DNA of 64,000 nt. Origin: a virus (lineage: Duplodnaviria > Caudoviricetes). The stretch's first letter is position 1; each line of letters starts with the position of its first letter. Shown here in pieces: positions 7,322-64,000 of the stretch. The translations under genes and the position numbers were made by a program. The stretch covers positions 1 through 64,000 of IMG/VR virus record IMGVR_UViG_3300031853_000007. One strand, 5' to 3'. The notes below the pieces were generated by a model. The model worked only from the letters and a program-made list of their open reading frames with translations. It ran no database searches and was not told the origin of the DNA.

Positions 7322-7702
7322 ATGAAGTGGTATGTTTACTACGAAGATGTAAATAAAAAGAAGATAGAGAAGTTCAATATATTTAATCATGCTTGGTTTA
7401 CTGATGAATGTATTAAAATACTTGAAAGGTACACGGGTAAACGCAAATTATCAGAGGATGAAATTAGCAAACCCAATCCTGATGTTTTGAATGACATAGC
7501 AGAAGATATTAAACACTCACTCATGTACTATTTCTGGTCTAAGTGTGAATGGGAAGTGCTTCTTGTGAGCTGGACAAGCCCCGATGACGAGAGGGTTCAT
7601 AAGAAGATTGACATATACGATCAGGTGATGATGAATTATCCCGCCTTTATCGAATACCTTTGGTATCATCAGAACGAACTAAAAACGATGAAACGGAAGT
7701 GA
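7322..7702 (+). CDS. Hypothetical phage protein
   Basis: ORF with RBS; YYFWSKCEWE...KIDIYDQ motif. Confidence 0.7.
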   Translation: MKWYVYYEDVNKKKIEKFNIFNHAWFTDECIKILERYTGKRKLSEDEISKPNPDVLNDIAEDIKHSLMYYFWSKCEWEVLLVSWTSPDDERVHKKIDIYDQVMMNYPAFIEYLWYHQNELKTMKRK

Positions 7703-7849
7703 TACATTGATTGGAATAATATTATTTATTGTTGTCTTTATAACAAGTTTTATAACCAAAGTCTCAGTAATGATAATTGTTGGTTCCGCGATATTAGCAC
7801 TACTTGACGTAGCATTGATAATCATTGGTCACAGTGGAGGTGGTAAGAA

Positions 7850-8956
7850 GTGAGAAAATTGTACCTTGATAATTCAGCTACAACAGCGGTGACAAGGGAA
7901 GTCCTCAATGAGATGTTGCCGTATTTTACCGAGGAATTTTATAATCCTAGCGCACAGTATATGAAGGCGAGACTGGTAAAAATGGCAATTCAGAAAGCCA
8001 GAATACAGTTTGCCGAAGCTATAAATGCCGAGCCTGAGCAGATATTCTTTACATCGGGTGCAACTGAGAGTAATAACATAATCGCTAGAAATTACCACGT
8101 TGTAGCTTCGATATATGAACATCCATCTATGCAGACTGGAACACGGGTTAAGGATGAAAAGGAACTTAAAAGGATACTGAACCATACAAAAAAGTATCAC
8201 CATGAAGATATGATTCTTGAAGTCCTATCATGGCAAATGGTCAATAGCGAGACAGGTGTGGAGTTTCCAATTAAGAAAATCGCCCAATTGGCACACATGA
8301 ATAATATGCTGTGCCACTCTGATATGACCGCTGCTTTTGGTAAGGTTCCTATTGACGTTAAAGACCTTGATATTGATTTTGCTTCGTTCTCTGGTCATAA
8401 GTTCCATGCACCCAAAGGTATCGGTGTTCTGTACATAAAAGACCCAAAGAACTTTAAGGGTGATATTATTGGTGGTGGTCAGGAACGTGGGATTCGTTCT
8501 GGCACTGAAAATGTTCCGGGTATCGTTGCGATAGGAAGTGCAGCGAGTCTGTACAACTATAACGCCGAACACAACAGCAATGCAAAACAGGCTAGACTAT
8601 ATGTTCTTAGTCGGTTGAGGGCTTCAATGCCCTGCGACTTCAAGCTTCTTGGAAATGATGATTCTGACTACTACCAAGTGCCTAGTATTATTAATATCGC
8701 CATAAAGGGTATTGAAGGTGAAAGCTTAATGATACTTCTTGATGGAAAGGGTATCTGCGTATCAACTGGTTCCGCTTGTCATAGTGCAAGCCTTGAAGTC
8801 AGCCAAACGGTTAAGAGTTTTAATCTCCCACCCGAATATGAACATGGCACAATCAGGATATCGTTTGATAACAGCTTTGATATGGACGATGCCGATTATC
8901 TAGTAGATGAAATTGTTAAAGCTTGTAAGTCACTTTTGACACTGAAAGGAATGTAA
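7850..8956 (+). CDS. iscS: Cysteine desulfurase (IscS/NifS family)
   Basis: YLDNSATT, NPS, FTSGATESNN, NSETG, SGHKFHAPKG (PLP Lys), RSGTEN, STGSACHS (catalytic Cys). Confidence 0.93.
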   Translation: MRKLYLDNSATTAVTREVLNEMLPYFTEEFYNPSAQYMKARLVKMAIQKARIQFAEAINAEPEQIFFTSGATESNNIIARNYHVVASIYEHPSMQTGTRVKDEKELKRILNHTKKYHHEDMILEVLSWQMVNSETGVEFPIKKIAQLAHMNNMLCHSDMTAAFGKVPIDVKDLDIDFASFSGHKFHAPKGIGVLYIKDPKNFKGDIIGGGQERGIRSGTENVPGIVAIGSAASLYNYNAEHNSNAKQARLYVLSRLRASMPCDFKLLGNDDSDYYQVPSIINIAIKGIEGESLMILLDGKGICVSTGSACHSASLEVSQTVKSFNLPPEYEHGTIRISFDNSFDMDDADYLVDEIVKACKSLLTLKGM

Positions 8957-11631: not shown

Positions 11632-12807
11632 TCAAATATCAAGCTGTTGAATTGTCTTTGCCTTTTCTTCTTCTAGCAGGTGTACGTATGTGTTATACGT
11701 AAACGATACGCTAGAATGTCCAAGCATTTCGGATATTATCTTTATATCCACGCCCTTTCGGATCATTAAACTGGCAAAGGTGTGCCTCAACGTATGCAAC
11801 CCCTGTGGTTCGTCAATACCCGCCCTCTTACATATAGCGGCATACGAGTTAGATAGAGTCGATAAGTCTCTTTTGCCGTTACAGATATACACGTAGTCTG
11901 AACTCAGCGGGCTTCTGATTTTGTACAACTCTGACAAATATTTCTCCGCAGTTTTGGTTAAGTGTACAATTCTGCTTTTGCGTGTCTTAGTACCGACTTG
12001 CTCAATAACTTGTCGCTTATCTTGTTCGTCGTAGACAATAGCTACATTAGCCTTGACCTTGATATACTTTTCCTTGAAATTAATGTCTCGCCACCTGAGC
12101 GACACAAACTCTCCTGCACGTAATCCTGTGTATATCAGTGACACGATAGCCAAGCTATTATCGTATTCAGTCCTAAACCAATGTGTAGTCAGTGCCGTAT
12201 TGACGAAGCGTTTGATTTCATCATCGTCAAAGAAACGTATCTCTTTGGTCTGCGTAAAAACCTTCTTGGGCGGGACTTCAACACGCTCACAAGGGTTGGT
12301 AGCGATAAACTCTTGTTTAATCGCATACTTCAACGCTTCATTGGTGAGTACGTAAGCTTTGTGGATGGTGGAATGACTAAGATGCTTGGGGTTCTGTAGC
12401 AGGGAGTTGATTAACTGATTCTGGATTACTGCGGGAGTCAGATCAGATAAGCGATACCCGCCAAGGTACGGTTTAATATTGTTGCGCCAAGTACATTCAT
12501 CTCGTGTGTAACTGGCAGGTTTGAGCTTTGGTTTCTTGATATTAACCAAATAGCTCTCAAAGAAATCGGTAACTGGTGTTGTGTTCGTGATTGGTTTATC
12601 ATCTACAGCGGTAATGTCTTCCTTAAACTGGCGCATTTTGCGTATTACGTCCTCTTGGTTGCCAGCGTAGAAGCGTTTAAACCTAACTCTACCGTTTGCG
12701 TATCTGCCATTTTCTACTTGCCCTACCCATTTCTCAGTAGTTGAGTCATAATAAACCGAGCCAACGTTCTTGATGTGTCGTACTTTCTTGCTTCCTGTAT
12801 TAGCCAT
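11632..12807 (-). CDS. int: Tyrosine integrase
   Basis: TGLRAGE (R), TKT (K), HTLRHTFAS, LGHSS, Y.H; N-terminal arm-binding and SAM-like domains; adjacent to attP. Confidence 0.96.
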   Translation of the reverse strand: MANTGSKKVRHIKNVGSVYYDSTTEKWVGQVENGRYANGRVRFKRFYAGNQEDVIRKMRQFKEDITAVDDKPITNTTPVTDFFESYLVNIKKPKLKPASYTRDECTWRNNIKPYLGGYRLSDLTPAVIQNQLINSLLQNPKHLSHSTIHKAYVLTNEALKYAIKQEFIATNPCERVEVPPKKVFTQTKEIRFFDDDEIKRFVNTALTTHWFRTEYDNSLAIVSLIYTGLRAGEFVSLRWRDINFKEKYIKVKANVAIVYDEQDKRQVIEQVGTKTRKSRIVHLTKTAEKYLSELYKIRSPLSSDYVYICNGKRDLSTLSNSYAAICKRAGIDEPQGLHTLRHTFASLMIRKGVDIKIISEMLGHSSVSFTYNTYVHLLEEEKAKTIQQLDI

Positions 12808-14825: not shown

Positions 14826-15788
14826 TTACATATCAAGTTCGTCCTTTAACTGTGTCAATCTTCTTGTATCAGTTTTGAGATAATGCTTTCTTGTTACATC
14901 TGTTCCACTGTGATTGAGTAGTGCCGATATATCTTCTAAAGGCATACCAGCAAGTGAGTACAATTGGGATTGCGTATGCCGGAAATCATGTGGGTGCCAT
15001 GAATCAACCCCAATCATCTTACCAATCTTTTTACACCAATCGTTCAGCGTTCCTGTACTAATCGGCTTATCCTCCGTGTTATATCCTGAATAAAACACCC
15101 AACCATAATCGTTTATCTTCTGTATCTCACGCTCTCTTTGAAGCTGTAACAGAAGCTCCTTTACCTCATTACTAAAGAACAGGTCAACAATCTTACCCTC
15201 TTTTTCAAGCACATCCTTGACAATTCGATTCTCAAAATCAATCTGTTCCCACCTAATGTTAGCCACCGCATTTACTCGCGCCATCGTAGACAGCGAAAAC
15301 AGTGCATAGGTTTTCAGTTGAAGATTTCCATATTCTGTAAGCTTATCCTTCATTAGCTGAACTTGTTCTTTGGTAAGAAACGTCTGTGTTACAATCGGCA
15401 ATCCCTTTTTTGGTCGGTCAAGAAATTCGCAGGGGTTCTCTAGTATAAGCTTTTTCTTTCTAAGGAACTTATAGAATGCGGAAATTGCCGCCATTCGTCT
15501 CTTCATGCGCTCCGTGTTGTTGCCTTGCTGTTTGCAGAAGTACAAGAACTCAGTAATGTCATCATCGGTTAAATCCTTAACACTTTGATTAAATTGATTA
15601 TCGAGTATGTAGATAAACCATTGCTGTAAGTCTTTCTCATACTGATATATAGTCTTCTCCGACAGGTCACGCAAGGACATATCAACCTTGTACTTCTGTA
15701 ACAACTTCTGTGTTTCAGGGTTTATTTTTTCTAACTTTTCGGGGTCATACAATACTACTCGTTTACTGCGTTTCGCTTCAACAGCCAA
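14826..15788 (-). CDS. XerC/D-like tyrosine recombinase (second recombinase)
   Basis: STMARV (R), EKEGK (K), HPHDFRH, LNHSG, HY; SAM-like N-terminus; TTG start after AGGAGG. Confidence 0.9.
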   Translation of the reverse strand: MAVEAKRSKRVVLYDPEKLEKINPETQKLLQKYKVDMSLRDLSEKTIYQYEKDLQQWFIYILDNQFNQSVKDLTDDDITEFLYFCKQQGNNTERMKRRMAAISAFYKFLRKKKLILENPCEFLDRPKKGLPIVTQTFLTKEQVQLMKDKLTEYGNLQLKTYALFSLSTMARVNAVANIRWEQIDFENRIVKDVLEKEGKIVDLFFSNEVKELLLQLQREREIQKINDYGWVFYSGYNTEDKPISTGTLNDWCKKIGKMIGVDSWHPHDFRHTQSQLYSLAGMPLEDISALLNHSGTDVTRKHYLKTDTRRLTQLKDELDM

Positions 15789-32322: not shown

Positions 32323-33286
32323 TTATCGACCTACAACGAGGTCTTGTTTCGCTTCACGGACATATCTGTCAAAGTATTCTTTAAACTTGTCATAGTTATC
32401 AACTATAACAGAACCTTCCATTACCCACGTGCGTTGCTGATTATATGTTGCACCAGAATTGTTTATAACTTTATTCTGAGCGTAATTATAATCTCTGATG
32501 GGTAAACCATTGAATACAGTATTAGATTTAGCAAATGCGGAACCTATACTTGTAGGTACAGACTGCATCAGCTTAGAGTTAAGGAACCGATTAAGCTTTT
32601 CTTGTGCTGAATCGCTAAGTCTTGAATGAGTAGTCTTCGGTTGAGTTCTAGCGTCATTCAATTCTTTGTTGCTATACTTTTCACCCTGTTTGTCGTACTC
32701 GGGATCGAAGTATTTTCTCATTTCATCGTACGACCCAAACATATCCATAAACTTGCTTACATCAAACCCTTCTTTGTTAAGAGCTTGAAGCATAGCACGG
32801 AAACGATCAAGTGCGGCAGTTTGTTCATCTGTTGCTTTTGCAAACTCGGCTGAGTAATTCTTGTAGAAATCAAGATACTCTTTCTGGTCATTTCGGAGTT
32901 CCTCATAAACCGAAAGTTTCTTTTCAAGCCGCTCGATTTCGTTGTCAATCTCTTTAAGCCGTACATCAGTAATCTCTTTGATTCGGTCTTGTATTTTACC
33001 ATACTCTGTTTGATACTGAGATACTATGCTGAGGTCTTGACTTGCAATTTTCTCACGCCAGTCTTTACCGAAAACGGCGGCGGCGTTCATCTCATCTTGA
33101 CCATTCTTCCAAGCGTCAACCGCCTCTTGCCAAGTTTCCTTGTAATTATTCCATGATTCGATTTGAGCATCATAGTTTGCAAGAGCAGCTTCTTTTTCTT
33201 TTTCAAGGTCTTCGATTTCATACTCACGAACCAAATCGTCATATTCCTTTTGGGCTTTTTCGACTTCTTCGGTGTTGGTTTCTATT
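32323..33286 (-). CDS. Tape measure protein exon 3
   Basis: Joining TGG GT|A ATA GAA gives RGWVIETNTEEVEKAQ, in frame with ORF 33234-32323. Confidence 0.9.
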
Positions 33287-33575
33287 CAATCTGTTACTTT
33301 CCCGTTTTCACGGTACTGACCCTTTCGGGCGGGTAGTCATTTCTGGCTACCTCTCACGTTTCATCGTTAAGTTATAGCGTGAGTTCGGACTGTATCTTCA
33401 CCCTCTATATTAATAGTAGGGGAGTAGCGAAGGTCTGTATGTTACCATACTAACCACTTTACAGTCTCTACGGTTTCTTTGTATAAAGTCTTACCTCGGT
33501 CTTATCTACTTCTAGACTTTAACCGATATAGCTACTTGTTTATAATATATTACTATATTAATGGGCAATATTATT
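33287..33575 (-). ncRNA. Group I intron 2 of TMP (289 nt, no ORF)
   Basis: P1 TGGGT/GCCCA with U.G; P10 TATT/AATA; P7 GACTGTA/TACAGTC (GTAGAGACTGTA, GAAGATACAGTCC); terminal G at 33287. Confidence 0.92.
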
Positions 33576-36028
33576 ACCCAACCTCTTGATGCTGAATACC
33601 GCCTAACCTTATTGTTTTTAGCCTTTTCAAGAGCAAGCTCCTTTTCACGTAGTTCGTTTATACGGTCACGTTCCTCAGCTTCCTCTTTTAGTGCGTCAAT
33701 CTGGTTGTCGTAGTATTCCTCAACTGCGGCTTTCTGCCGTTCAAGAGCGTCAATCTGCTTGTCGATTTGGCGGGTTACCGCATTAACAGCAGAATCGTAA
33801 AGCGCCGCCTGTTCTTCAAGAGTTTCTTTCTCCTCTTCAAGGACTTCGCGCGCCTCTTTCCGCTTCTTGATTTCCTTGTTGATCTTGTTGATAGTTTCGG
33901 TCAACTTGTCAATATTAGCCTGAATAAGCTCCTTTTCTTTAGCGTAAGCATCGTTTGTATCTTCGACTTCGGTTGTTATATCACGGTCAATTCTGAGCAG
34001 CTCAATCGCTTGCTTGAGAACTGCTTTGATATTTTCGTCGTCGGTAGAATTGTACATGAGAAGCAATTCTTTAAGAGAACTTTCGGTAGTGGTATTGATA
34101 AGCTCCTGCATACGCTGTTTGAGAGTATCGGCATCATTAGCATATTGGAGTAAGTCGGGGAACTGGTCAAAGAAGTCATCGCCGAGAGTTCCACCCTCTT
34201 CAAGAGTTTTGTATGCAGACTTAAGAGGATTGATGGTATTGTCGATAAGGTCTTTGAGTGTATTCTCTGTTCCGTCTATTGTGCGGACACCGTAGAAGTC
34301 GTGCCAATTGAAGGATTCGGCTTTAAGGATACCACTAATTGTACGTTTGATTTGATCCTTGTCGGGATTAAACCAGTTAATCTTATTATTGATTTCACCC
34401 TGAACTAGTTTTAAGAAAACTTCAAGTTCGCTTTCATTAAGTTCAGGAATGATTTCAGCAATGAATCCTCGCTTGTTGCCACTATGGAAACCAAATCTTT
34501 CGTCAAAAGCAGTATTGATTTTACTAATCCAATCATAAATCTTTTGTTGAGTTTGAGCTTCATCGGTATCAATAAAGAATTCACTAAGATCCGGCATACT
34601 ATTTAGAATGGAATCAATAGACGCAACGATAGCTTCATTAGAACCTAAGAAACGATTTTTATATTCATCTACACTGTCGGCAGCAGATAACATATCCTCT
34701 CTTAACTGATTAAATTCCTCTTGAGTTTTAGGTACGCCGTTTTGGTCGGTAATATCCAAGTAAAGCATTTGAGCAACAGCGGAATTTGCAGCGTCTCTTA
34801 ATTCTTTAGCTTTTTCATAGGAGCCTTGTAAATCCTCTTGCTTCTTTAGGATGCTATCCCATAACTTATTACCCTCTAATTCTTGTTGAGTATATAATCC
34901 TTTAATTCTTCCCTCTTCAAGAATCTTTTGCATTTCTAATAATTTTTCGTATGCCTCGATTGCAGAATCTAAATCATCGACTTCGCCAATATCGAAAAAA
35001 TCAATGTTTACATCACGACCACCAGTTAAGAGATCTAGTGGAAATATTCCTGTGCTCATCTTCTTAACTTCTGTTTCATACTCGATTCCTGCTTTTTTAA
35101 GCTGATCAACCATTTTACTAGTGGATTCGTCATCTATATCAAATGTTATTTCATTATATTTTCCACTAATAAATGAATCTTTGGTTTTCTTTTGGAAGTT
35201 TTCTAGTTCTTTAGTGTATCCAGCAAAAGCATCGCTATAATCTTGTTTGAGAGCATCAGTCGTTACCTTATTGATACTACCATCTAAGTCGTCATATTTT
35301 TCTCTAAGAGTTTTAATTTCGTCTTCCTCATAACCTAAAGCTTTCAAAAGAGCGTCGGTTTTATTTGTGAGATTTTCTTTTGAAGCCGCACCCTCGTCGT
35401 ATGCACTTTTAACAGAGGAATATTCTCCATATAGTGATCGAATTTGTTTAATTTCAGATTCCGCTTCCTCGCCTGTTTCTATTATCTGCTCTTTTAATTC
35501 TTTTTGCTTTTGAATTAAATTAGCTACTAAACCGATGGTGGCAGATATAATCATACTGATTCCAGCAGATGCTAACCCAGAAACTATTTGAGCGCCCATA
35601 TTTTTAAGTGCGCTCCAAGCGCTATCTTTCACATAAGCCGCAAGGCTTGCTTTAGCTCCGTTAAGCTGAACCAACTGACTACCTAATGCGTTATTAGTTT
35701 CAAGAATAGCTTCCGCCATCTTACCTCTAGAAACACTGTCGGCTTGTGCGTTATACATATTAATAGCTTTTATGCCACCCCAAAATCCGCTAGTAACTTT
35801 AACCTGAGACTGATAGAAGTCTTTTGCAGAATAATTAGCTGCATCGGTTGTTAGTGCATACTCTTTCAGTCTGTGATTTAATCCATCTTGAAGCTGAATT
35901 TGGTCTTTAGTTAATGTCCCTAACTTGACCAATTCCATCTCCGCTGTTTTATAATCAGGTAACTCTACTCCTCTAATTTGACGAAGGAATATTTTTTCAC
36001 CATCTTTTATGTTGCTAGTGTCGAATAT
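33576..36028 (-). CDS. Tape measure protein exon 2
   Basis: Frame open 90 nt upstream of the ATG at 35938 (IFDTSNIKDGE...); hydrophobic segment and long coiled coils. Confidence 0.9.
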
Positions 36029-36077
36029 CAGACATAGTTAATGTGTAAATTTGTGGATAATAAACACATTTTCAATC

Positions 36078-36106
36078 TTGACAATATATTAATTCAATGA
36101 TATAAT
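36078..36106 (+). promoter_or_regulatory. Consensus sigmaA promoter inside the intron, antisense to TMP
   Basis: TTGACA-17 nt-TATAAT with TG extension. Confidence 0.9.
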
Positions 36107-36141
36107 TATATAAAAACAATAATTAGAAAGAGGTGTGATAA

Positions 36142-36747
36142 GTGAAAAGAAGTATTTACCTTATAATAGTTGGAATAATGCTTGTGATAAGTATGATTCT
36201 GGTTATATTTTTAGTTGTTCAGCGAAAAACATATAGTGGCGCGTATGATTCCTATAGTCATTCTAATCATTTAGATAATGATTTTGAAAAATACATTAGA
36301 GACTCAAATTTTCGCAGTTCTAATCAAACACCTATATTTCTAGCGTATCTCGGAAAAGATAAAACAATTGATAATTCCACCAATATCGTTTTAACTGTAT
36401 GGATCTGGGACGATGTGAATAACCAAAATATAGAAAAAAACTGGTCTGAACTTTCCTCGGAAGAAAAAAAGAATGACCTTCGTGAATGTGCAGAACTGGT
36501 TGAAAAATTCTTGAAAAACAAAGATGTACCTTATAGTTATCATATTTACGTAAACGTTCAAAACACCTCCAAATTAGGAAATTATGTTTACGACAAATCT
36601 CATGATTCAATATGGATACCAAATTGTGAAGAGAAAATAAAAAAAGGTGAATATGATGAACCACCATCATTAAAGGAAGGATATCATGTCTGCATATTAA
36701 ATAGTAAATTCACAGAAGTTGGCAAAGAAGAATCCACCCCATACTAA
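36142..36747 (+). CDS. Intron-borne antisense gene: N-terminally anchored membrane protein
   Basis: MKRS plus ~22 hydrophobic residues; own promoter, RBS AGAGGTG and terminator. Confidence 0.85.
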   Translation: MKRSIYLIIVGIMLVISMILVIFLVVQRKTYSGAYDSYSHSNHLDNDFEKYIRDSNFRSSNQTPIFLAYLGKDKTIDNSTNIVLTVWIWDDVNNQNIEKNWSELSSEEKKNDLRECAELVEKFLKNKDVPYSYHIYVNVQNTSKLGNYVYDKSHDSIWIPNCEEKIKKGEYDEPPSLKEGYHVCILNSKFTEVGKEESTPY

Positions 36748-36750
36748 CAA

Positions 36751-36778
36751 GAGCCACCCGAAAGGGTGGTTTATTTTT
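36751..36778 (+). terminator. Intrinsic terminator between the two intron cargo genes
   Basis: GCCACCC-GAAA-GGGTGGT then TTATTTTT; weak U-tract on the minus strand. Confidence 0.85.
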
Positions 36779-37202
36779 ACCAATCCACCCCGGACACATC
36801 GCCTGTCACAATCGACTCAATGATACCTACAGAGACAACCATACATTTGCCTTCATCATAAGGATGTTCTATTCTCAGGTTTCCCTTTAACTCGCCGTCT
36901 AAGAATTTCTGATAATCCTCTTCCGATATGTATCCCCAAGGATTACAAGACCAAAAGTCGTTTGTATCAACATAAACTAAAATATATCCGTCGGGTTCTC
37001 TAAGTGATGGTTCATTGGCTTCATTTCCTTCACCTATACAGTATATCCCAATAGTTAGAGCGGCAAATATCAATATAGCTATTATACACCTAAGCCAAGC
37101 GTCTCTGCATTCCTTTTTCTCAGCTTGTCCCCACGTTTCGTCTTCCCATTTTTGTGTTTTACGTTTGGGTTTGGGTTCATCTGATTCACGCCTATAACTC
37201 AT
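36777..37202 (-). CDS. Intron-borne sense gene: single-TM membrane protein
   Basis: RBS AAGGAAG; charged N-terminus then CIIAILIFAALTIGIYCIG; no nuclease motif. Confidence 0.8.
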   Translation of the reverse strand: MSYRRESDEPKPKRKTQKWEDETWGQAEKKECRDAWLRCIIAILIFAALTIGIYCIGEGNEANEPSLREPDGYILVYVDTNDFWSCNPWGYISEEDYQKFLDGELKGNLRIEHPYDEGKCMVVSVGIIESIVTGDVSGVDW

Positions 37203-37538
37203 TTTAATCTTCCTTTCTTTCTATTCCTTTCGCACTTTCCCACCGTAGCAGCGAATCGCTACGTATGATTTTCTACGTTCCCGTAGTTGTCTGGAGTACC
37301 CCATGACGACTCTCGCCGCCCTACCATTATACTCTCTGAACCTTCCTACTAAGTAGGCTTGGCTGCGGATTATGCGGTATCTCAACCGCCCTTCCCGAAC
37401 GAGATTCATAAAACTCGTTACGCAATGCGCCAGTTTCGGTAGTTTTTCCAAAGCTCTCTTGTCAATTAAATCGACTCGTTCCGTGTTACCACCAGAGCTT
37501 ACTCGGGCATATTCATCGAGGGTAAACATTCTAACCCT

Positions 37539-40500
37539 ACCCGAGCCAGTTTTATCTTTGAGTTTCGCTTGAAGCGCAGTCATTCCGCCGAATGCCAGAA
37601 GTCCTGTACCCAAGCCTTTCATATCTTTGAGAACATCAAGAATATCGTTGAGTCCTCCGCCGAATTTAACAACCCAGTCTAAGCCGTCCTTGACAAGCTC
37701 ACTATCCACGACGTTGGTGGAAAGCGTCTGCCAAACAGACTGGATCTGATTAAGTTTTCCTTGAATGGAGTCGAGCGCGGTTTCTAACTCGCGGTCAGCC
37801 GAACCCTCAGCCATTCCTTCGTTTAATTCCTTGACAACATCTCTTGCGGTCTCGAAGTTTTCAAGCATAGCATAAACGGTGTTAATGCCGACTTTACCGC
37901 CGAGCATTTCGCCGATTCTAGCTTGGTCTGTATCATTGAGGTCTTTCCAAACCTTAGAGAGATCGTTGAGGATATCGTATGTGCTGCGGAAACTGTGCTC
38001 GTCGAGCATGATTTCCACGCCAGAGATTGATTTGATTTCTTCTCTCAACTTCGATACCGTCATGGTCATCTCTTCGCCCTCTTCTTCGAGTTCGCTCTTC
38101 GCGCCACGAATTCGAGCAGAGATGGTCTTAAGGGATGTTCCCATCTTTTCAGGATCTTGGATAATTTCGTTACCTGCCGTTGTTAAAGCAATCGCCTCTG
38201 AAAGCGTATTATTCGCGGCGACCAAAGACGAAGCAGAACGTTGTAAGGATTCGCCTAGCCCTGAGCTGGAAACTGCAAAATTGTTCCCGACATAATTAAA
38301 TTTATCAACAATTTCCTCTGCCGTATCACCCATACTCTGATATGCCTTCATAGTAGAGATAATACTTTCACTCGCCGTACCAATATCCAAATCCTCAGCA
38401 ACCGTCTTGTACTTCGATGCAATCTCACCGAGCTTCTGTGCTTCTTCAAGCTGATAACCCAGCCTGCTGAATGTCGCCGTCGAGTCAATCTGGTCAGTTA
38501 AAGTTGTGCCGAGTGCTATCGAAGATTTCTGAACAGACTTCTGATATTTAAGAAGAGACTGTTCGGAAGCATCTGTGACCTTGCGGAGATTAACCATCGC
38601 GGTATCAACTTCTTTGACCTGAGTAACCATGTCTTTCATCAGTCGGAGACCCTGAGTGATAGTTCTCGTTACAAGCGTCCAGCCACCGAACTTCTTGAAC
38701 ATCGCAGTGAGGACACTACCAGTAGTCTTACCGTTCTTACCGGCTAATACGATTTGGGAATTAAATTCCGCGAAGTCCGCATTAAACCTTCTTAGATCGG
38801 CGTCGCTAGTTATAAGACCATTTCTAAGTCTATCCATGAAGTCCGCATACTTTGCTGCGTTTTCAGGATATGTTAGAGCCTTAGAGTTAAGCTTACCCCA
38901 TGCTTCAAGTTCGGATATTCTATTATCTATCTTTGTTTTAAGTGATACGCCCCTGTTGCTTTCTTTCTCAACTTTAGCAGATTCTTTATTTGCAGAGATA
39001 AGTTGATTAACCGCGTATCTTGCATCATTTACGTTTTCAACATAGACACCCATTGGCTCCACAAGGTTAGCCATTACCTCATCGCGGTACTTTTTAAAAT
39101 CGGACTCGGATGCAAACTGACCCGGAGAATAACTATTTAAAGAATCCTTTGTATTAAAATACCGCCCAATGGTTCTTTCTGCCTCCGCAAGGGTTCTGCC
39201 ATCACCAATCTCAACCGTATTGAGATCTATGTTATTATCTTTAGCTTGCTTAATTAACCTATCAATTTCTAGTATTTTCTTTTCTAACTTTTGGAGACCC
39301 CCGATTGCATCATCAAACGAAAGAATATCCTCCACTTCATCATCCGAATGAGATATAAGTGTATCTACCGATTTGGTTACGTTTCGCAGTGACTCATTAA
39401 CGTTATCTATCGCATCTTCCGCTGCTTTAATTCCGCTAACATCTAATTCCTGAGATAACCAATACTCCTCGGTATTTTTAACTTTCTCGATACCATCGCT
39501 AAGTCTTTTAATTGCATCGTCGTAAGCTGAGGTATCTACATGAGCATTACTAAGTTCGTCTCTTAATGCTATTAATTTTTCAAGCGCTTCTTCGGCAAAG
39601 TTTACTGACGAATCGGTGTTGAACATATCATAGTATTGAGATACAAAACTCGGAACCGAGGTGTTGTTATACTCATTATTAGCCTCAGTTAAAAACGCAT
39701 CGGCTTCCAGTAAAGCTTTAGTAGACGGGTCTTTTCTTGTTGCAACATTATTAACCTTGATTAACTTATCTCTTATTTTCTCAAGTTTAGAGAGTAAGTC
39801 TTGTACGTCGCTATCGGGCAGTAATGTATCTTCAAGACCGCCAGTAGAAGAAAGTAGAAATTGCAATTCTTTAATCTCCCGCTGTACTTCGGGTAATAAA
39901 CCTTCTGTTTCTACGAGCATTTGTCCCGCATTTCGATTAGGTAATTGTGGTGATGCAGGCTGCTTAGGAGGTTTTGGGTTACCACCGCCAGACGGAGTAT
40001 TGGATGGCGGGGTAGCAGGTACGGGTGTATTACCCGAACCATTATTGGTCACTTGTATACCATTGGAAATCTTATTATAGATACCATTAATTATAGCCTT
40101 TGCTTCTTTGATATCCTGCTTGGTTTCATCTACATCCTCGAATATAAGGTCGGTAGAGGCAGACGCTTGTTTAACGTTATTGTCAATATCCAGAAGACTG
40201 TTGCCTATTAGTTTATACTCCGCTTCACTCCAACCTATATTATCATTAGGTTTGCTAGGTGTTATATTGTCGGGAGGATTAGAATTATCCGCATTTATAG
40301 CATAAGATTCTGCTAAACGTTCATTCTGTGCATCAATTTCTGCATCAACAAACTGTTTGATTCTATCGGCTAAGTTATTAACGCTTCTATTTGTTTCGCT
40401 AATAGCTTCACTCATTCTCTTGAAAGCTTCTTTGAGTCCCACGTTTTTGTTTGAGTTTTTATTACTTAAATCATCTGCGGTATTTTTATTGCTCTCTAAA

Positions 40501-41648
40501 TTATTGGATTCCGCAGTAGTATTATTATTTACCGCCTGAGTATTTTCAGAAATAGCATTAGCTAAATCCTGTACAATATCGCTCTTTATGACATTAGTGT
40601 CTATCTTTTCTGGTTTATATCGACTCAAATCTCTACCGGAATCCTGTCTTAGTTCATCCAGCATATCAGAGATTTTGTTTCGGTTATAAATATCGCCAAC
40701 TTGTATTTGTTTGGGCATCTTTGATGCTTCTTTTGTGCTATAAAGACCGTTTTTTACACCGAGATCAACAGCTTGGGTAAATTGATTTTTAAATTCTTTA
40801 GCTATTTGCGTAACGACTTTTTCAATGTTTCGCCCATTTATTTCCGTTCCTTCGGGTATGTATTTCAAGTCCTTTAATTTGTCAACAATTGCAACTCTTT
40901 CTTCTTTGGTAGCCGCCTTGTATTCTGCAAGAATCTCCTTTGCAATCTGAACAGAACCTACATAGTTTGTTTTAAGAACAGAGTCCACACCTTTTTTGCC
41001 AGTCTTATTATCGTCTGTAATAGGTACACGGGCTTTATTGGCATCCTTGTCTAACATACCTTCATACGCATTAGCTACATCATTAACAGTTTTTAATTTT
41101 CGAGCCATCTCATCAAATGACTCATTTATCCGTAAAACCGCTTTTTCAACATACTCAGCGCCTTTTAATGTCTTGATTTCATCAACATTAGAATCAGAAG
41201 ATTGAGACTTAATACTTGATTTAGCGGATTGTGTTTCTTTGGGTTCGGGTCTCTTTGCAACTTGCGGGACTGAATTGGAAGTATTATCCATAAACGGTGC
41301 CAAAGCTTTAATAACCTTCTTTAATTCCTTTAAATCAGATATTAGTTTCGGTAAATCACCAGCTATATTTACCTCTAAATCAATAGAATCTCCATCATAC
41401 GCAGCGTGTAATTCTTTAAATTCTGCATCTACGGATTCTGCGTCGGCTGAAATATTTAATTTTAATTCATTATCGTTTAATGCTTTTGTTAAGTCTTTTA
41501 AAAAATCATCATTGTTAGTAGAAACGTCCAATTTAATGCCTTTTTCTTCAAGTTTCTGTAAAACCTTTTCAAATTCATCAATATTTTTTGCATCTACGCT
41601 AGGTACTATTTCTAAATCAAATATACTTCCATTCATTTCATCTGCCAT
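37539..41648 (-). CDS. Tape measure protein exon 1 (spliced product about 2508 aa)
   Basis: TMP core VDTAMVNLRKVT...FSRLGY...VDKFNYVGNNFAVSS...GTSLKTISARIRG...FRSTYDIL; exons 4110+2453+964 nt = 2509 codons. Confidence 0.93.
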
Positions 41649-57985: not shown

Positions 57986-58590
57986 TAGCATCGTAGGATA
58001 CCACATTTATATTTACACAGACCTTCGCCTTACCTCCATTAACTTTCCATGTTGTTCGACCACTGAGAAGTCAAGGCTGAATATAAAGGAGCTACCTTTA
58101 TACTTCTTGACTACTTATAAACCTCAGGCGGGACTGTTACCCACAAATTTCACCAAACGTTCAGCATTACCCCCGAAGAGGATTTATTCATCTTAAATTC
58201 TATAATACTTTAGAAGAATAAACTTTACTTGTGATATGGCTACTCTAACTGGCGACTTGTCTTATACCCCGTTTGACCGAGTTCAACACAAATGCGATTG
58301 CTTGGATTACCCAAGGAACCCCACGGTTTCCACGCCGCAGGTTTTGGGCTTATTCTACACACGTAGCGTCTATTACTCGCACGACAAGTTCCATGTCTTA
58401 CACAACGTTAACTCTTAGCACCACCACTAATATCAAGGGTTTCCCTTTCTTGCTTATACGTCACCGCATAAGAATCGACTTATCATCACAAGTATCCTTG
58501 CAATAATATTCGGTTAAGTAGCGTCTCGGCAGGGTGTTAACCATCTGCACCGAGTTGTTGTAAATATAAATCTAGCATCCTACAATGCCA
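57986..58590 (-). ncRNA. Large structured ncRNA (~605 nt), ROOL-like
   Basis: Ends pair (GCATTGTAGGAT..ATTTATATTTACA / TGTAAATATAAAT..ATCCTACGATGC); long-range stems TACTTGTGAT/ATCACAAGTA, ACTTGTC/GACAAGT, AGTCAAG/CTTGACT; starts right after tRNA-Asn; no credible ORF. Confidence 0.7.
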
Positions 58591-58592
58591 AG

Positions 58593-58665
58593 CTCTCCGA
58601 CTAGGACTCGAACCTAGAACCGACTCGTTAACAGCGAGCTGCACTACCGCTTGTGCTATCGGAAA
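58593..58665 (-). tRNA. tRNA-Asn(GTT), CCA not encoded
   Basis: Full cloverleaf: TTTCCGA/TCGGAGA, GCAC/GTGC, GCTCG-CTGTTAA-CGAGT, CTAGG-TTCGAGT-CCTAG. Confidence 0.9.
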
Positions 58666-58723
58666 GTATATGAGCTTTTTATCCTCATGCTCAGGAGCAA
58701 AAAGAGGTGAAAACATAAGAGAA

Positions 58724-58795
58724 TTGCGCGCTCAAGAATCGAACTCAAAACCGTAGGTCATGACCCTACTCGTGTTACCATTACACCAACGCGCG
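58724..58795 (-). tRNA. Atypical tRNA with CAT anticodon (initiator-like C1:A72 mismatch)
   Basis: CGCGCGT/GCGCGCA, GTGT/ACAC, GTAGG-GTCATGA-CCTAC, TTGAG-TTCGATT-CTTGA. Confidence 0.7.
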
Positions 58796-61566: not shown

Positions 61567-61926
61567 CTTTTGTGTTTGCCGGTGTCGCTAATACCGACGG
61601 TTTCCCCTCATGCTTTCACATGAGAACAGACTATATCTTCACCATATAAAGGTGTACACCATAGCAGGATGTCAATAGCTTACATTCCCACACTCTTTCG
61701 AGTTAGTCGTTGAGCCTTTCCCTATTCGGGACTTGGTTGCGCGGTTGCCGATTATACCACACTTAGGATTTAACCTTATGCTATACACATTGTTCTTTCT
61801 GCTTTCGCCGCTATCACGCTCAGACATATTTCATTCTCACGTTGTAGCCAATGTGTCTTTACGGGTTTCCCGCAGTTAGATGTATTTATTTATGCACACA
61901 TTTCTGTATACCGAGACCAATAATCA
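61567..61926 (-). ncRNA. Group I intron (360 nt, no ORF) in the RNA polymerase gene
   Basis: P1 GAGAT/GTCTC with U.G; AACTGCGGGAAA, GGCAACCGCGCAACCAAG, GCTCAACGACTA, GAAGATATAGTCT; terminal G at 61567. Confidence 0.92.
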
Positions 61927-64000
61927 ATCTCTACATTAGAAAGAATTGCCAATTTAACTATATCATCATACAACTCCTGATTATCTTCAAACGTCTGTCC
62001 ACTATGTATATTGTTCCAGAATAACGTGTTGAGTTCCTGAGACAGATTAACTATCTCACCGATTTTGTTTACGCTGGTCTTTATATCAAGGTCACACTTG
62101 TCGCTATTGTTATAGTAGCGCTTTCTCTTGATAGCAGAAACCAGAGATGTGGGGATGGCAAACTTAGAGTAATTGCGTTCTGCGGCAGCTATCAACAACT
62201 TGTTATTAGTGAGCATCATTGTATCACTATCAAAATCGGCGCCGTTGAGCTTCTCTAATAGATTCTCATTTATGCTATTCACACACACAATTTCTTCGGT
62301 AAGGAAGAAGTAATCGTCTATATGCTTGCTCTCCACGTTATTCGCCAATAGTATGTTACCCGCGCAGATATGCGGACTTCTCGATCCGAGTAACTTCTTT
62401 CCATACTCGAACCGCACGTTATGTATGTTTCCCACACCCAAATCAGATTCGCCGTTGAATCTTCCGATAGACTGCAACAGCATCTCATATGGATTGCCAA
62501 GTAGCGTACTGTAATTGCCATTTACCAGAACGTGACCCGACATAAGGTTCTTCTTGAACGATACAAGCAAGTCCTTTAGAAAGTCGTGGTACAGTTTAGT
62601 CTCGGTAAACTTCTCATTGATACCAAGGAGCTGATACACTATGTCGTTCTTATTTGCTATCTCCTCTAAGTTAATGGGCGGATTCTCGGGGTACTTAATA
62701 TGGTGACGCACGACAGCAGGATTGTACCGCAGGTTAGACATATACTCGAAGGACTCCGCAAGTAAACGATCAACTTCCTTTTCCGAAAGCTGTAAAGTGT
62801 TGAGCAACTGATAGTGTGTCTGAACTAATCTACCATCGAAATAGTGTGTAGGCTTTTCATGCTTTACTACACCAAACGTGGTTTCGAGGTTATCGAGCCA
62901 CTGGTCGAGCGTTCCGAACTTTAAGAACTTGATGCTACTCGGCGTGGTTATCAACTTGATGTCCTCAATTGATTTAGCGCGGGTATAACCGTTAAGCTGC
63001 GAAACCTCGGTGATTCCATTATCGGCAAAGAACTTCTGAATGTGGGTAGAAAACGCGGCAGTCTTGAAGAAGCGGTTACGAAGCAGGAGCATACTGTAGT
63101 GGCTGTATTTTCCGTACATCGAATAGTCCATAAGAGTCTGACCGTCCCATATACTGTTGTTTACCTCAACAAAGTCGTTGGTTGTCTGGAGCGAAGTTCC
63201 ATCATATGAGACAGCGGCGGCTCTATCCTTAAACACGCTATTGTAATCGTCGATCACCAGAATGTTTTCAGGCTGTATCTCAATCGTGTCAATGATACTA
63301 CTGAGTGTCAGCGATATGTAAGCTTCAAAAGCAGCGAGGTCTATCTCGTCACCGTCGCGGATTTTTAAACCACAGCATTCCCATTTGTGCATACGGCTGT
63401 ACAGCTTCTCGTCGATGAACAGACACTTGCCAACGCGGGAGCTACCACTACTGCGCTTGAAACGGATATATTTGATACCGTCGCAGTAGAACCCATTATT
63501 ATAGAGTTCGTTACGCAGGTCAGCAACACTATTCAGTACCAAAATATTATCTTTAGCGTAGTACTTCTTATCCTTGACGTAGAAGAACTTACCGAGAACT
63601 TCGGGGTCGTCCACAATCTTGTCCATTTCCTTATTGGTTTGGATAGCAATAAGTTCGCCGTCTTCTATGCAGATACCGTCGGTAAGCGTGATGTCGTTTA
63701 TGTCGTAGCCGAACTTAACGTAGATGTCAGAAGTGATTCGGTTATAGAGTTTGTTGCTGTAGTTAAAGTTGACGTTGATGATGCGCTGGGTATACTCCTT
63801 TTCGCCTATAAAAAAAGAAAACCGCTTGTTGCGGTAGACTTTAGTGTATACGTCTCGGAGTTTAAATAGGTCGAGACAGTAATCGAGGTCGCCCGAAAAC
63901 TTGCGGGGACTGATTGAACCATCGCGGCGGCGGATATTATAACCAAGAGGATTTGGCTTGTTATAGTGGTTGGCTATGTAGATATCCTTAGCGTCGAGGT
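61927..64000 (-). CDS. YonO-like single-subunit RNA polymerase (cRdRP-related two-barrel family), exon 1; start lies outside window
   Basis: Frame open to the window edge; RSSGSSR.G.C.F, DG, R.....K, RSPH, LNGADFDSD catalytic motif, IG.IVN. Confidence 0.88.

Follow-up and report, generated by a model that had tools for sequence, protein, structure and literature searches.

Comparative evidence for a group I intron carrying membrane-protein genes in the tape measure gene of a rumen phage

What interrupts the tape measure protein (TMP) gene of a tailed phage when its second exon begins only 1510 nt after the first and the DNA between them holds two genes for membrane-anchored proteins? The question is raised by positions 36029-37538 of a 64,000-nt stretch of phage DNA, called the window here (positions 1 to 64,000 of IMG/VR record IMGVR_UViG_3300031853_000007; the phage record is about 112 kb long, and the public sequencing runs that contain the phage are bovine and goat gut samples). 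A sequence-only reading of the window had taken these 1510 nt for a group I intron with two membrane-protein genes in place of a homing endonuclease, with both splice sites fixed by the pairings P1, P10 and P9.0 and with an in-frame junction; when the sequence was read again all of its coordinates, the three pairings and the frame of the junction proved correct. Its statement that the TMP frame stops and resumes 1510 nt later holds for the resumption but not for the stop, as the frame of exon 1 remains open past the 5' splice site for 105 further codons, through the whole ribozyme core, as far as a TAG at 37223-37221. The reading of the 1510 nt as a genuine group I intron of the TMP gene is strongly supported by comparative evidence, because P1 and P10 co-vary with the exons, the core helices co-vary, Rfam gives a partial match and the exons are colinear with an uninterrupted TMP. 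Coordinates of the features are collected in Table 1.

Pairings at the splice sites and in the ribozyme core

Features that mark a group I intron are present in the window: a P1 with a U.G pair, a terminal G together with P10 and P9.0, and a crossing P3 and P7 within a P3-P8 core. P1 pairs CUCGGGU (37545-37539) with GCCCGAG (37508-37502), a guide lying 31 nt downstream, and places U37539.G at the splice site. P10 pairs GAAUAU (37514-37509) with AUAUUC (36028-36023), and P9.0 pairs AGACA (37292-37288) with UGUCU (36034-36030), which is followed by the terminal G36029. The relatives with which these pairings were compared are locus L007, whose TMP is 60% identical, and 74 viral contigs found with the 19-nt motif GGUGGUAACACGGAACGAG of the P2 region, 75 loci in all, divided into five classes by the end of the 5' exon; that this motif does not vary among the loci follows from the way they were found. 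The same element occupies the same codon in L007, where it is 890 nt long and P9.0 is formed by GGAC/GUCC instead of AGACA/UGUCU.

At the 5' splice site the five classes have P1 pairings of CUCGGGU/GCCCGAG, CAGCUGGGU/GCCCAGC, CUGUGGGU/GCCCACA, CAAGGGU/GCCCUUG and GCGCGGGU/GCCCGCG, all with the U.G; three of the P1 pairs co-vary and the U.G is invariant (21/21 sequences). At the 3' splice site the search was for a downstream G, then six bases complementary to the P10 guide, then a long open frame, and in every locus with enough sequence the P10 site is the exact start of the next long frame, at a distance of 0.9-5.2 kb. P10 pairs found across the classes are GAAUAU/AUAUUC, GAUUGU/ACAAUC and UGAUGU/GCAUCA. 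As judged from these alignments, the match of the splice-site pairings is far beyond chance, with compensatory changes in the 75 related loci.

The core behaves in the same way. Ten core helices, the crossing P3 and P7 included, have 98.5% of cells paired, with double changes in 30 of the 50 pairs (21 distinct cores), and the covariation score is 0.534 compared with 0.199 on shuffling and at most 0.085 for slid partners. Taken singly, P3, P5, P6, P7 and P8 are each 96-100% paired with compensatory changes. P2 also co-varies by class (AAGCUCU/AGAGCUU, AAUACUCC/GGGAGUAUU and AUACCGCC/GGGUGGUAU) and stands outside the formal count owing to a one-column misalignment in alignment A3. A seeming 6-bp P4 pairing in one class is not retained in the other classes and was dropped, and P4 has no confident position in the core. 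All classes have a hairpin 10-20 nt upstream of the 3' splice site. The loop of this hairpin often reads (A/U/C)CCAC (window 36040-36070, L012, L014, L022, L009 and L007); it is complementary to the GUGG(U) of the GGUGGURACACGG motif (37475-37493), so that a long-range contact could be imagined, as an idea only, given that the motif is the search key itself.

Exons and the predicted joined protein

The gene that hosts the intron is a very long tail gene on the minus strand, in which PhageMin_Tail (PF10145, E 1.4e-21) is found in an open reading frame (ORF) at 41648-37221, and the last 400 residues of this ORF have TMP homologues in Brevibacillus phage Sundance, SPbeta-like Bacillus phages and Enterocloster phages. 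Exon 1 ends in ACT GGC TCG GGT at 37539 and exon 2 starts with ATA TTC GAC at 36028; exon 2 is in phase 0, giving the predicted protein junction TGSG|IFDTSNIK, and the predicted ligated RNA would read ...GGCUCGGGU|AUAUUCGAC across 37539|36028. Uninterrupted TMPs, those of Sundance (2528 amino acids) and of Enterocloster phage PMBT24 (1508 amino acids), extend far past the intron point. When the exons were joined by script and aligned as protein, residues 986-1358 of exon 1 matched PMBT24 TMP 83-440, residues 152-280 of exon 2 matched 491-615 and a later part of exon 2 matched 1116-1237, with the order kept. The joined protein of L066 gives one unbroken alignment to PMBT24 that reaches 37 residues beyond the junction, and the script-spliced proteins of the window and L007 align with each other across it. 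Upstream of the intron the frame is TMP in all five classes (5/5), and its alignment with exon 1 of the window reaches to within 5-16 residues of the junction. Two of the relatives (L014 and L027) have no ATG close to the exon-2 splice site. Within a phage collection, neither blastn of 35500-38100 nor tblastn with exon-2 residues 1-300 gave a match.

Read-through of the exon-1 frame into the intron amounts to about 47 codons in L007 and L002. In the window the open frame (37224-37538) ends 16 nt before the start of ORF A, the first of the two cargo genes; this arrangement may couple translation of ORF A to unspliced RNA, or may be due to chance.

The cargo genes and their exchange

About 1.15 kb of cargo lies between the core and the 3' module, in the P9 region. 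As the sequence-only reading had it, two genes for membrane proteins are found here, ORF A (37202-36777) and ORF B (36142-36747), each with one hydrophobic segment: in ORF A a stretch of 19 residues (39-57, mean Kyte-Doolittle 2.6) and in ORF B residues 8-26 (mean Kyte-Doolittle 3.4). The TTGACA-17-TATAAT promoter and the terminator it had assigned to ORF B are likewise borne out, the former by a 12/12 consensus match with a TG extension and the latter by a hairpin and T-run. Homologues of ORF A are 55-95% identical (alignment A2); for both ORFs together the range is 52-95%, with conserved blocks and no frame breaks among a handful of homologues. Judged by these intact homologues and by the ribosome-binding site, promoter and terminator, ORF A and ORF B are real, conserved genes.

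Neither ORF matched a Pfam, PHROG or PADLOC family, and in the protein atlas the cargo proteins fall in unnamed clusters only. A profile search of 1.8 billion representatives gave the ORF B family 25 relatives of about 215 residues. Distant members of this family start with lipoprotein signal peptides carrying a lipobox L-x-G/A/S-C, whereas the protein of the window has a plain membrane anchor; the lipoboxes would therefore place the domain outside the membrane, which argues against a DNA endonuclease. Nothing meaningful came from Pfam with 19 family members or from comparing the family profile with PDB sequences, and P0019, which belongs to the ORF B family, had no relative in the viral contigs. 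The structure model of ORF B (predicted local distance difference test, pLDDT, 63) gave a best E of 0.055 with Foldseek against PDB, a best Z of 6.7 with VIA-align, where the noise level is 7-8, and in BFVD a top match named 'Lipoprotein' (E 8e-3), none of them above noise. The best fold matches are small alpha/beta domains, among them precursors of sex-pheromone lipoproteins and a 'lipoprotein' of a phage. The model of ORF A (pLDDT 55) was too poor for a fold search. The earlier claim that the cargo has no nuclease motif thus stands within the reach of the Pfam, PHROG, PADLOC and fold searches. The families looked for were HNH, GIY-YIG, LAGLIDADG, His-Cys box, PD-(D/E)XK and EDxHD, to none of which ORF A or ORF B gave a family match, and within these limits the reading of the cargo as free of homing endonucleases has their support.

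Comparison of the same TMP position in related phages had been suggested in order to look for a conserved core with variable cargo, and this is what the 75 loci contain. In the relatives the slot holds 0.5-4.8 kb of other genes, one to nine in number: L007 has a single 155-amino-acid zinc-ribbon gene and other loci have 4-9 genes. An antisense double zinc-ribbon family (F0) adjoins the 3' splice site in 38 loci and is missing from the window, where ORF B is in that place. A retropepsin-like protease (PF13975/PF13650) is found in 32 loci and a PemK/MazF-like toxin (PF02452, E 9e-20) also occurs, while about 50 further cargo families are nameless; no homing-endonuclease or transposase family was found in the cargo of the window or in 20 of the cargo families from the relatives. 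Two arrangements within this cargo may be recorded separately. In class-1 loci (L009, L012, L014, L022 and others) the promoter of the F0 gene spans the 3' splice site, with its -10 in the last intron bases and its -35 (TTGACT) in the first codons of exon 2, so that AATAAGTCAA serves both uses. In the class-1 introns of L017, L061, L076 and L081 the 227-amino-acid PemK/MazF-domain protein (F18) is followed by a small ORF (F19), and the two may be a toxin-antitoxin pair carried as intron cargo.

Exchange is also seen between close relatives. In a contig at least 90% identical in the flanks, 35912-37235 is replaced by 976 other letters; a second close contig diverges at 37230, the divergence points of close relatives lie at 37227-37236, and a third run contains the window's own cargo. 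To judge from these contigs, cargo is exchanged between close relatives at about 37230, where the ribozyme core ends. The replacing contig is 17,520 nt long, and a contig of equal length encodes P0039, an ORF B family protein with 30% identity; the replacing cargo thus probably encodes another member of this family, and the slot may exchange diverged versions of one family. Two runs labelled metatranscriptomic, which by appearance are DNA, contained the cargo replacement in their contigs and no spliced joint.

Table 1. Predicted features of the TMP locus, in coordinates of the window
Feature	Position	Strand	Description and evidence
TMP exon 1	37539..41648	-	1370 codons; PhageMin_Tail domain; ends in ...TGSG; translation and PF10145
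TMP exon 2	33576..36028	-	817 codons and 2 nt; begins IFDTSNIK; colinear with PMBT24 TMP 491-615 and 1116-1237
TMP exon 3	32323..33286	-	about 320 codons, up to the stop
Group I intron, 1510 nt	36029..37538	-	Sequence; element shared, at the homologous TMP position, by L007 and the 74 contigs found with the motif
Ribozyme core (P1 loop hairpin, internal guide sequence, P2, P3-P8, P7, P9 hairpins), about 310 nt	37230..37538	-	Conservation stops at about 37230; alignment A3, covariation
Internal guide	37502..37514	-	P10 guide GAAUAU (37514-37509), then P1 guide GCCCGAG (37508-37502)
19-nt motif (P2 region)	37475..37493	-	Search key for relatives
Rfam Intron_gpI partial match (model 60-145, P4-P6-P7)	37333..37399	-	19.4 bits, E 6.1e-4
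P9.0 5' strand AGACA	37288..37292	-	Immediately 3' of the P7 3' strand UACUCC (37298-37293)
3' module	36029..36070	-	Hairpin AAUGUGU...ACACAUU (36070-36040), P9.0 3' strand UGUCU (36034-36030), G36029
ORF A, 141 amino acids	36777..37202	- (sense)	Basic N-terminus, one transmembrane segment, C-terminal domain of about 84 residues; ribosome-binding site AGGAAG
ORF B, 201 amino acids	36142..36747	+ (antisense to TMP)	N-terminal membrane anchor; unnamed lipoprotein/anchored-protein family
ORF B promoter, sigma-70-type TTGACA-17-TATAAT with TG extension	36078..36106	+	12/12 consensus match
ORF B terminator, hairpin and T-run	36751..36772	+	Sense-strand tail weakly T-rich
Second TMP intron, group I, ORF-less	~33287..33575	-	Rfam 35.5 bits, E 9e-9 at 33366-33585; approximate boundaries

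Other elements of the genome may be mentioned briefly. The second TMP intron (Table 1) is missing from L007, where exons 2 and 3 are contiguous, and its removal in the window would give the junction ...SRGW-V-IETNTEE. A full-length group I intron scoring 73.7 bits, above the Rfam cut-off, lies at 61607-61936 (-) within a long unnamed ORF (61890-63998), the ORFs flanking it having no Pfam family, and a fourth group I match (37 bits) lies outside the window at genome position 100782-101044 (+). In L008 (about 7330-8600) a distant TMP is interrupted elsewhere, at the equivalent of exon-1 residue 1273, by a segment with a 294-amino-acid ORF inside, beyond which the frame continues for 1750 codons; the segment is probably a further ORF-bearing intron. 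The ORF that follows the TMP gene has no Pfam family. At 58001-58578 (-) and 58593-58795 (-) a ROOL RNA (324.9 bits) directly adjoins two tRNA genes. Genes for three tyrosine recombinases (PF00589) are present, at 11668-12234 and 14868-15380 (-) in the window and at 65749-66231 (-) in the genome, and a temperate lifestyle or several recombination functions are possible.

Interpretation of the locus

Splicing, the timing of expression and the function of the cargo enter here as steps of a proposed scheme, built upon the anatomy, covariation, exon colinearity, cargo turnover and gene conservation described above. We consider it likely that the element is a genuine group I intron in the TMP gene, that its cargo consists of envelope genes other than endonucleases and that it is a tolerated slot for accessory genes. 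On the late TMP transcript P1 would present U37539 to attack by guanosine, and P9.0 together with P10 would draw the remote 3' splice site into the core; joining of the exons would give TGSG-IFDT and, with the second small intron then removed, a single TMP of about 2500 residues. Having no promoter of its own, ORF A would depend for its expression on the TMP transcript or on the intron once excised. Transcription of ORF B would run counter to TMP, driven by its own strong promoter and ending at its own terminator. The slot would be a tolerated site for accessory genes, with cargo exchanged where the ribozyme core ends. For the cargo proteins the most likely place of action is the cell envelope, superinfection exclusion being one example, and this is the least certain step. 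Given the three tyrosine recombinases lysogeny is possible, and in the case of a temperate phage ORF B could be expressed while TMP is silent.

Several observations weigh against this scheme. A whole-genome search with Rfam RF00028 (Intron_gpI) gave the locus 19.4 bits, under the gathering score of 50 bits, so that the covariance-model search proposed with the sequence-only reading yielded a partial P4-P7 match and fell short of the cut-off; Rfam searches of the window at the gathering threshold and of 35500-38100 at E <= 10 gave no group I match at the locus. The 1.2-kb insert and the divergent periphery may be the cause of the low score. In no close relative did an intron-less allele turn up: the joined exon sequence of class 1, ACTCAGCTGGGTACARTMAA, had no exact match in the viral contigs, a search that was not made in the same way for the junction of the window. 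If ribosomes followed the 105-codon open frame on unspliced RNA, they could unfold the ribozyme. The terminator-like hairpin after ORF A can be read on the sense strand too, and antisense transcription from the ORF B promoter would oppose transcription of TMP. Efficient splicing would thus be opposed by the open frame in the core, by the weak sense-strand hairpin, by convergent transcription of ORF B and by a wait of about 1.2 kb for the 3' site. Exon 2 holds an in-frame ATG at 35938, 30 codons in, so that its separate translation is conceivable. Lastly, the structure models are weak (pLDDT 63 and 55), and the view that the cargo is not a nuclease leans mainly on sequence and on the lipoprotein relatives.

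The same observations can be set against other explanations of the locus. If splicing were absent or rare, the gene would in effect be split into two separate proteins and the element would be a ribozyme-like relic or an RNA-processing site. The Rfam score, the stop of the exon-1 frame inside the intron, the ATG of exon 2 and the sense-strand hairpin all fit this; however, the GGAG preceding that ATG is only 1 nt upstream of it, which is poor spacing for initiation, exon 2 lacks a start codon in some relatives, and uninterrupted homologues have both parts in one protein. Clear pairing constraint on the core helices, and the P10, P9.0 and terminal G that are kept and co-vary up to 5.2 kb from the core, are also unlike a relic, and a split gene seems to us very unlikely. 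An ordinary selfish intron, with a mobility function hidden in its cargo such that an ORF of the window or the zinc-ribbon gene of the relatives is an unfamiliar homing or maintenance protein, would explain why the intron sits at the equivalent position in TMPs whose protein identity is only 25-52%, and why the F0 double zinc ribbon is found beside the 3' splice site in so many of the loci. The core is also better conserved than the exons on either side (for instance 71% nucleotide identity, as opposed to 57%, for the window and L007), which fits horizontal spread, although selection on the ribozyme alone also predicts this. The intron of the window does without F0, a membrane segment is present in each of its ORFs, lipoprotein signal peptides occur in the ORF B family, and no nuclease or DNA-binding family was found among the cargo families tested, so that hidden mobility is in our judgement unlikely.

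The cargo could, finally, be neutral baggage, harmless in a tolerant intron loop and with no role for the phage, as might be suggested by the ORFan status of most cargo families and by their highly variable content. The open frames and conserved blocks of ORF A and ORF B at 52-78% identity, the consensus promoter and terminator of ORF B and the replacement cargo of a relative, which is probably another ORF B family member (P0039), speak against this, and we regard it as the least probable of these explanations. Returning to the tolerated accessory-gene slot, a more far-reaching version of it can be put forward tentatively, as something we hold possible and rather doubtful. The family of TMP introns would serve as a heritable slot dedicated to storage, its ribozyme making an essential virion gene safe for accessory, envelope and toxin-antitoxin genes that are exchanged as cassettes at the core's edge; catalysis would be delayed by the distant 3' module until all of the cargo has been transcribed; and here two envelope proteins, one of them independent of late transcription, would protect the lysogen or the infected cell from superinfection.

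Of the systems with which the locus can be compared, the T4 sunY (nrdD) intron shares its layout, with an ORF of about 1 kb between the catalytic core and the 3' splice junction. Michel and colleagues in 1992 reportedly found that the distal site is selected, and said to be activated, by a long-range pairing of the intron's 3' end with its core. By analogy we infer that the 3' module would act as in sunY, P9.0 and P10 being the links between core and 3' end. Unlike here, the sunY ORF is a sense-strand homing endonuclease (I-TevII), and neither an antisense gene nor turnover of cargo is known there. Group I introns of TMP genes and group I introns with content other than endonucleases are already known (PMC2504315, PMC10448857, PMC4227781). 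In Bacillus cereus-group prophages three sites (TMP-IVS1/2/3) are occupied by group I introns that are ORF-less or have endonuclease remnants (PMC2504315), and the TMP intron of Vibrio phage ICP1 carries HNH genes, is spliced according to RNA sequencing and reverse transcription-PCR and varies in content between isolates (PMC10448857). In these introns too P1 and P10 are adapted to the site; the present intron differs from them in its two envelope-protein genes, one an antisense transcription unit, and in relatives with up to nine unrelated genes. The sequence-only reading's premise that group I intron ORFs are normally homing endonucleases has to be tempered, as other content is known from IStrons and organelle introns (PMC4227781). 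The IStrons CdISt1 and BcISt1 have a 5' group I ribozyme with IS200/IS605 or IS607 transposon cargo and occupy many sites (PMC4227781); like the present element they are found in Firmicutes and have a long gene-bearing segment and a far 3' splice site, whereas here there is no detectable transposase, one fixed site in one gene and variable accessory genes. ORF B resembles morons, and the superinfection-exclusion lipoproteins that temperate phages encode, such as Ltp of Streptococcus thermophilus phage TP-J34 (PMC3952083), in being a small gene in the late region, of membrane-anchored or lipoprotein type, with its own promoter and terminator around it (consensus matches only). No likeness to Ltp emerged from the family or fold searches, in which Ltp itself was not compared directly, and the interior of an intron is not a described moron site. 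In the literature we found no phage group I intron with a changeable set of accessory genes that have promoters of their own.

Large gut and rumen phages thus have, in an essential tail gene, a whole family of introns that carry accessory genes, one to nine of them, and these genes change between close relatives. To our knowledge phage group I introns are usually treated as selfish, with homing endonucleases as their sole passengers. If splicing takes place as proposed, the intron would be a neutral insertion site for accessory genes inside an indispensable gene, annotation pipelines would split these TMP genes and mislabel the islands as intergenic, and the locus would offer a natural system in which a ribozyme finds its 3' splice site kilobases away with an opposing transcription unit in between. 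The cargo families, nearly all of them nameless, are candidates for novel functions in exclusion, defence or counter-defence.

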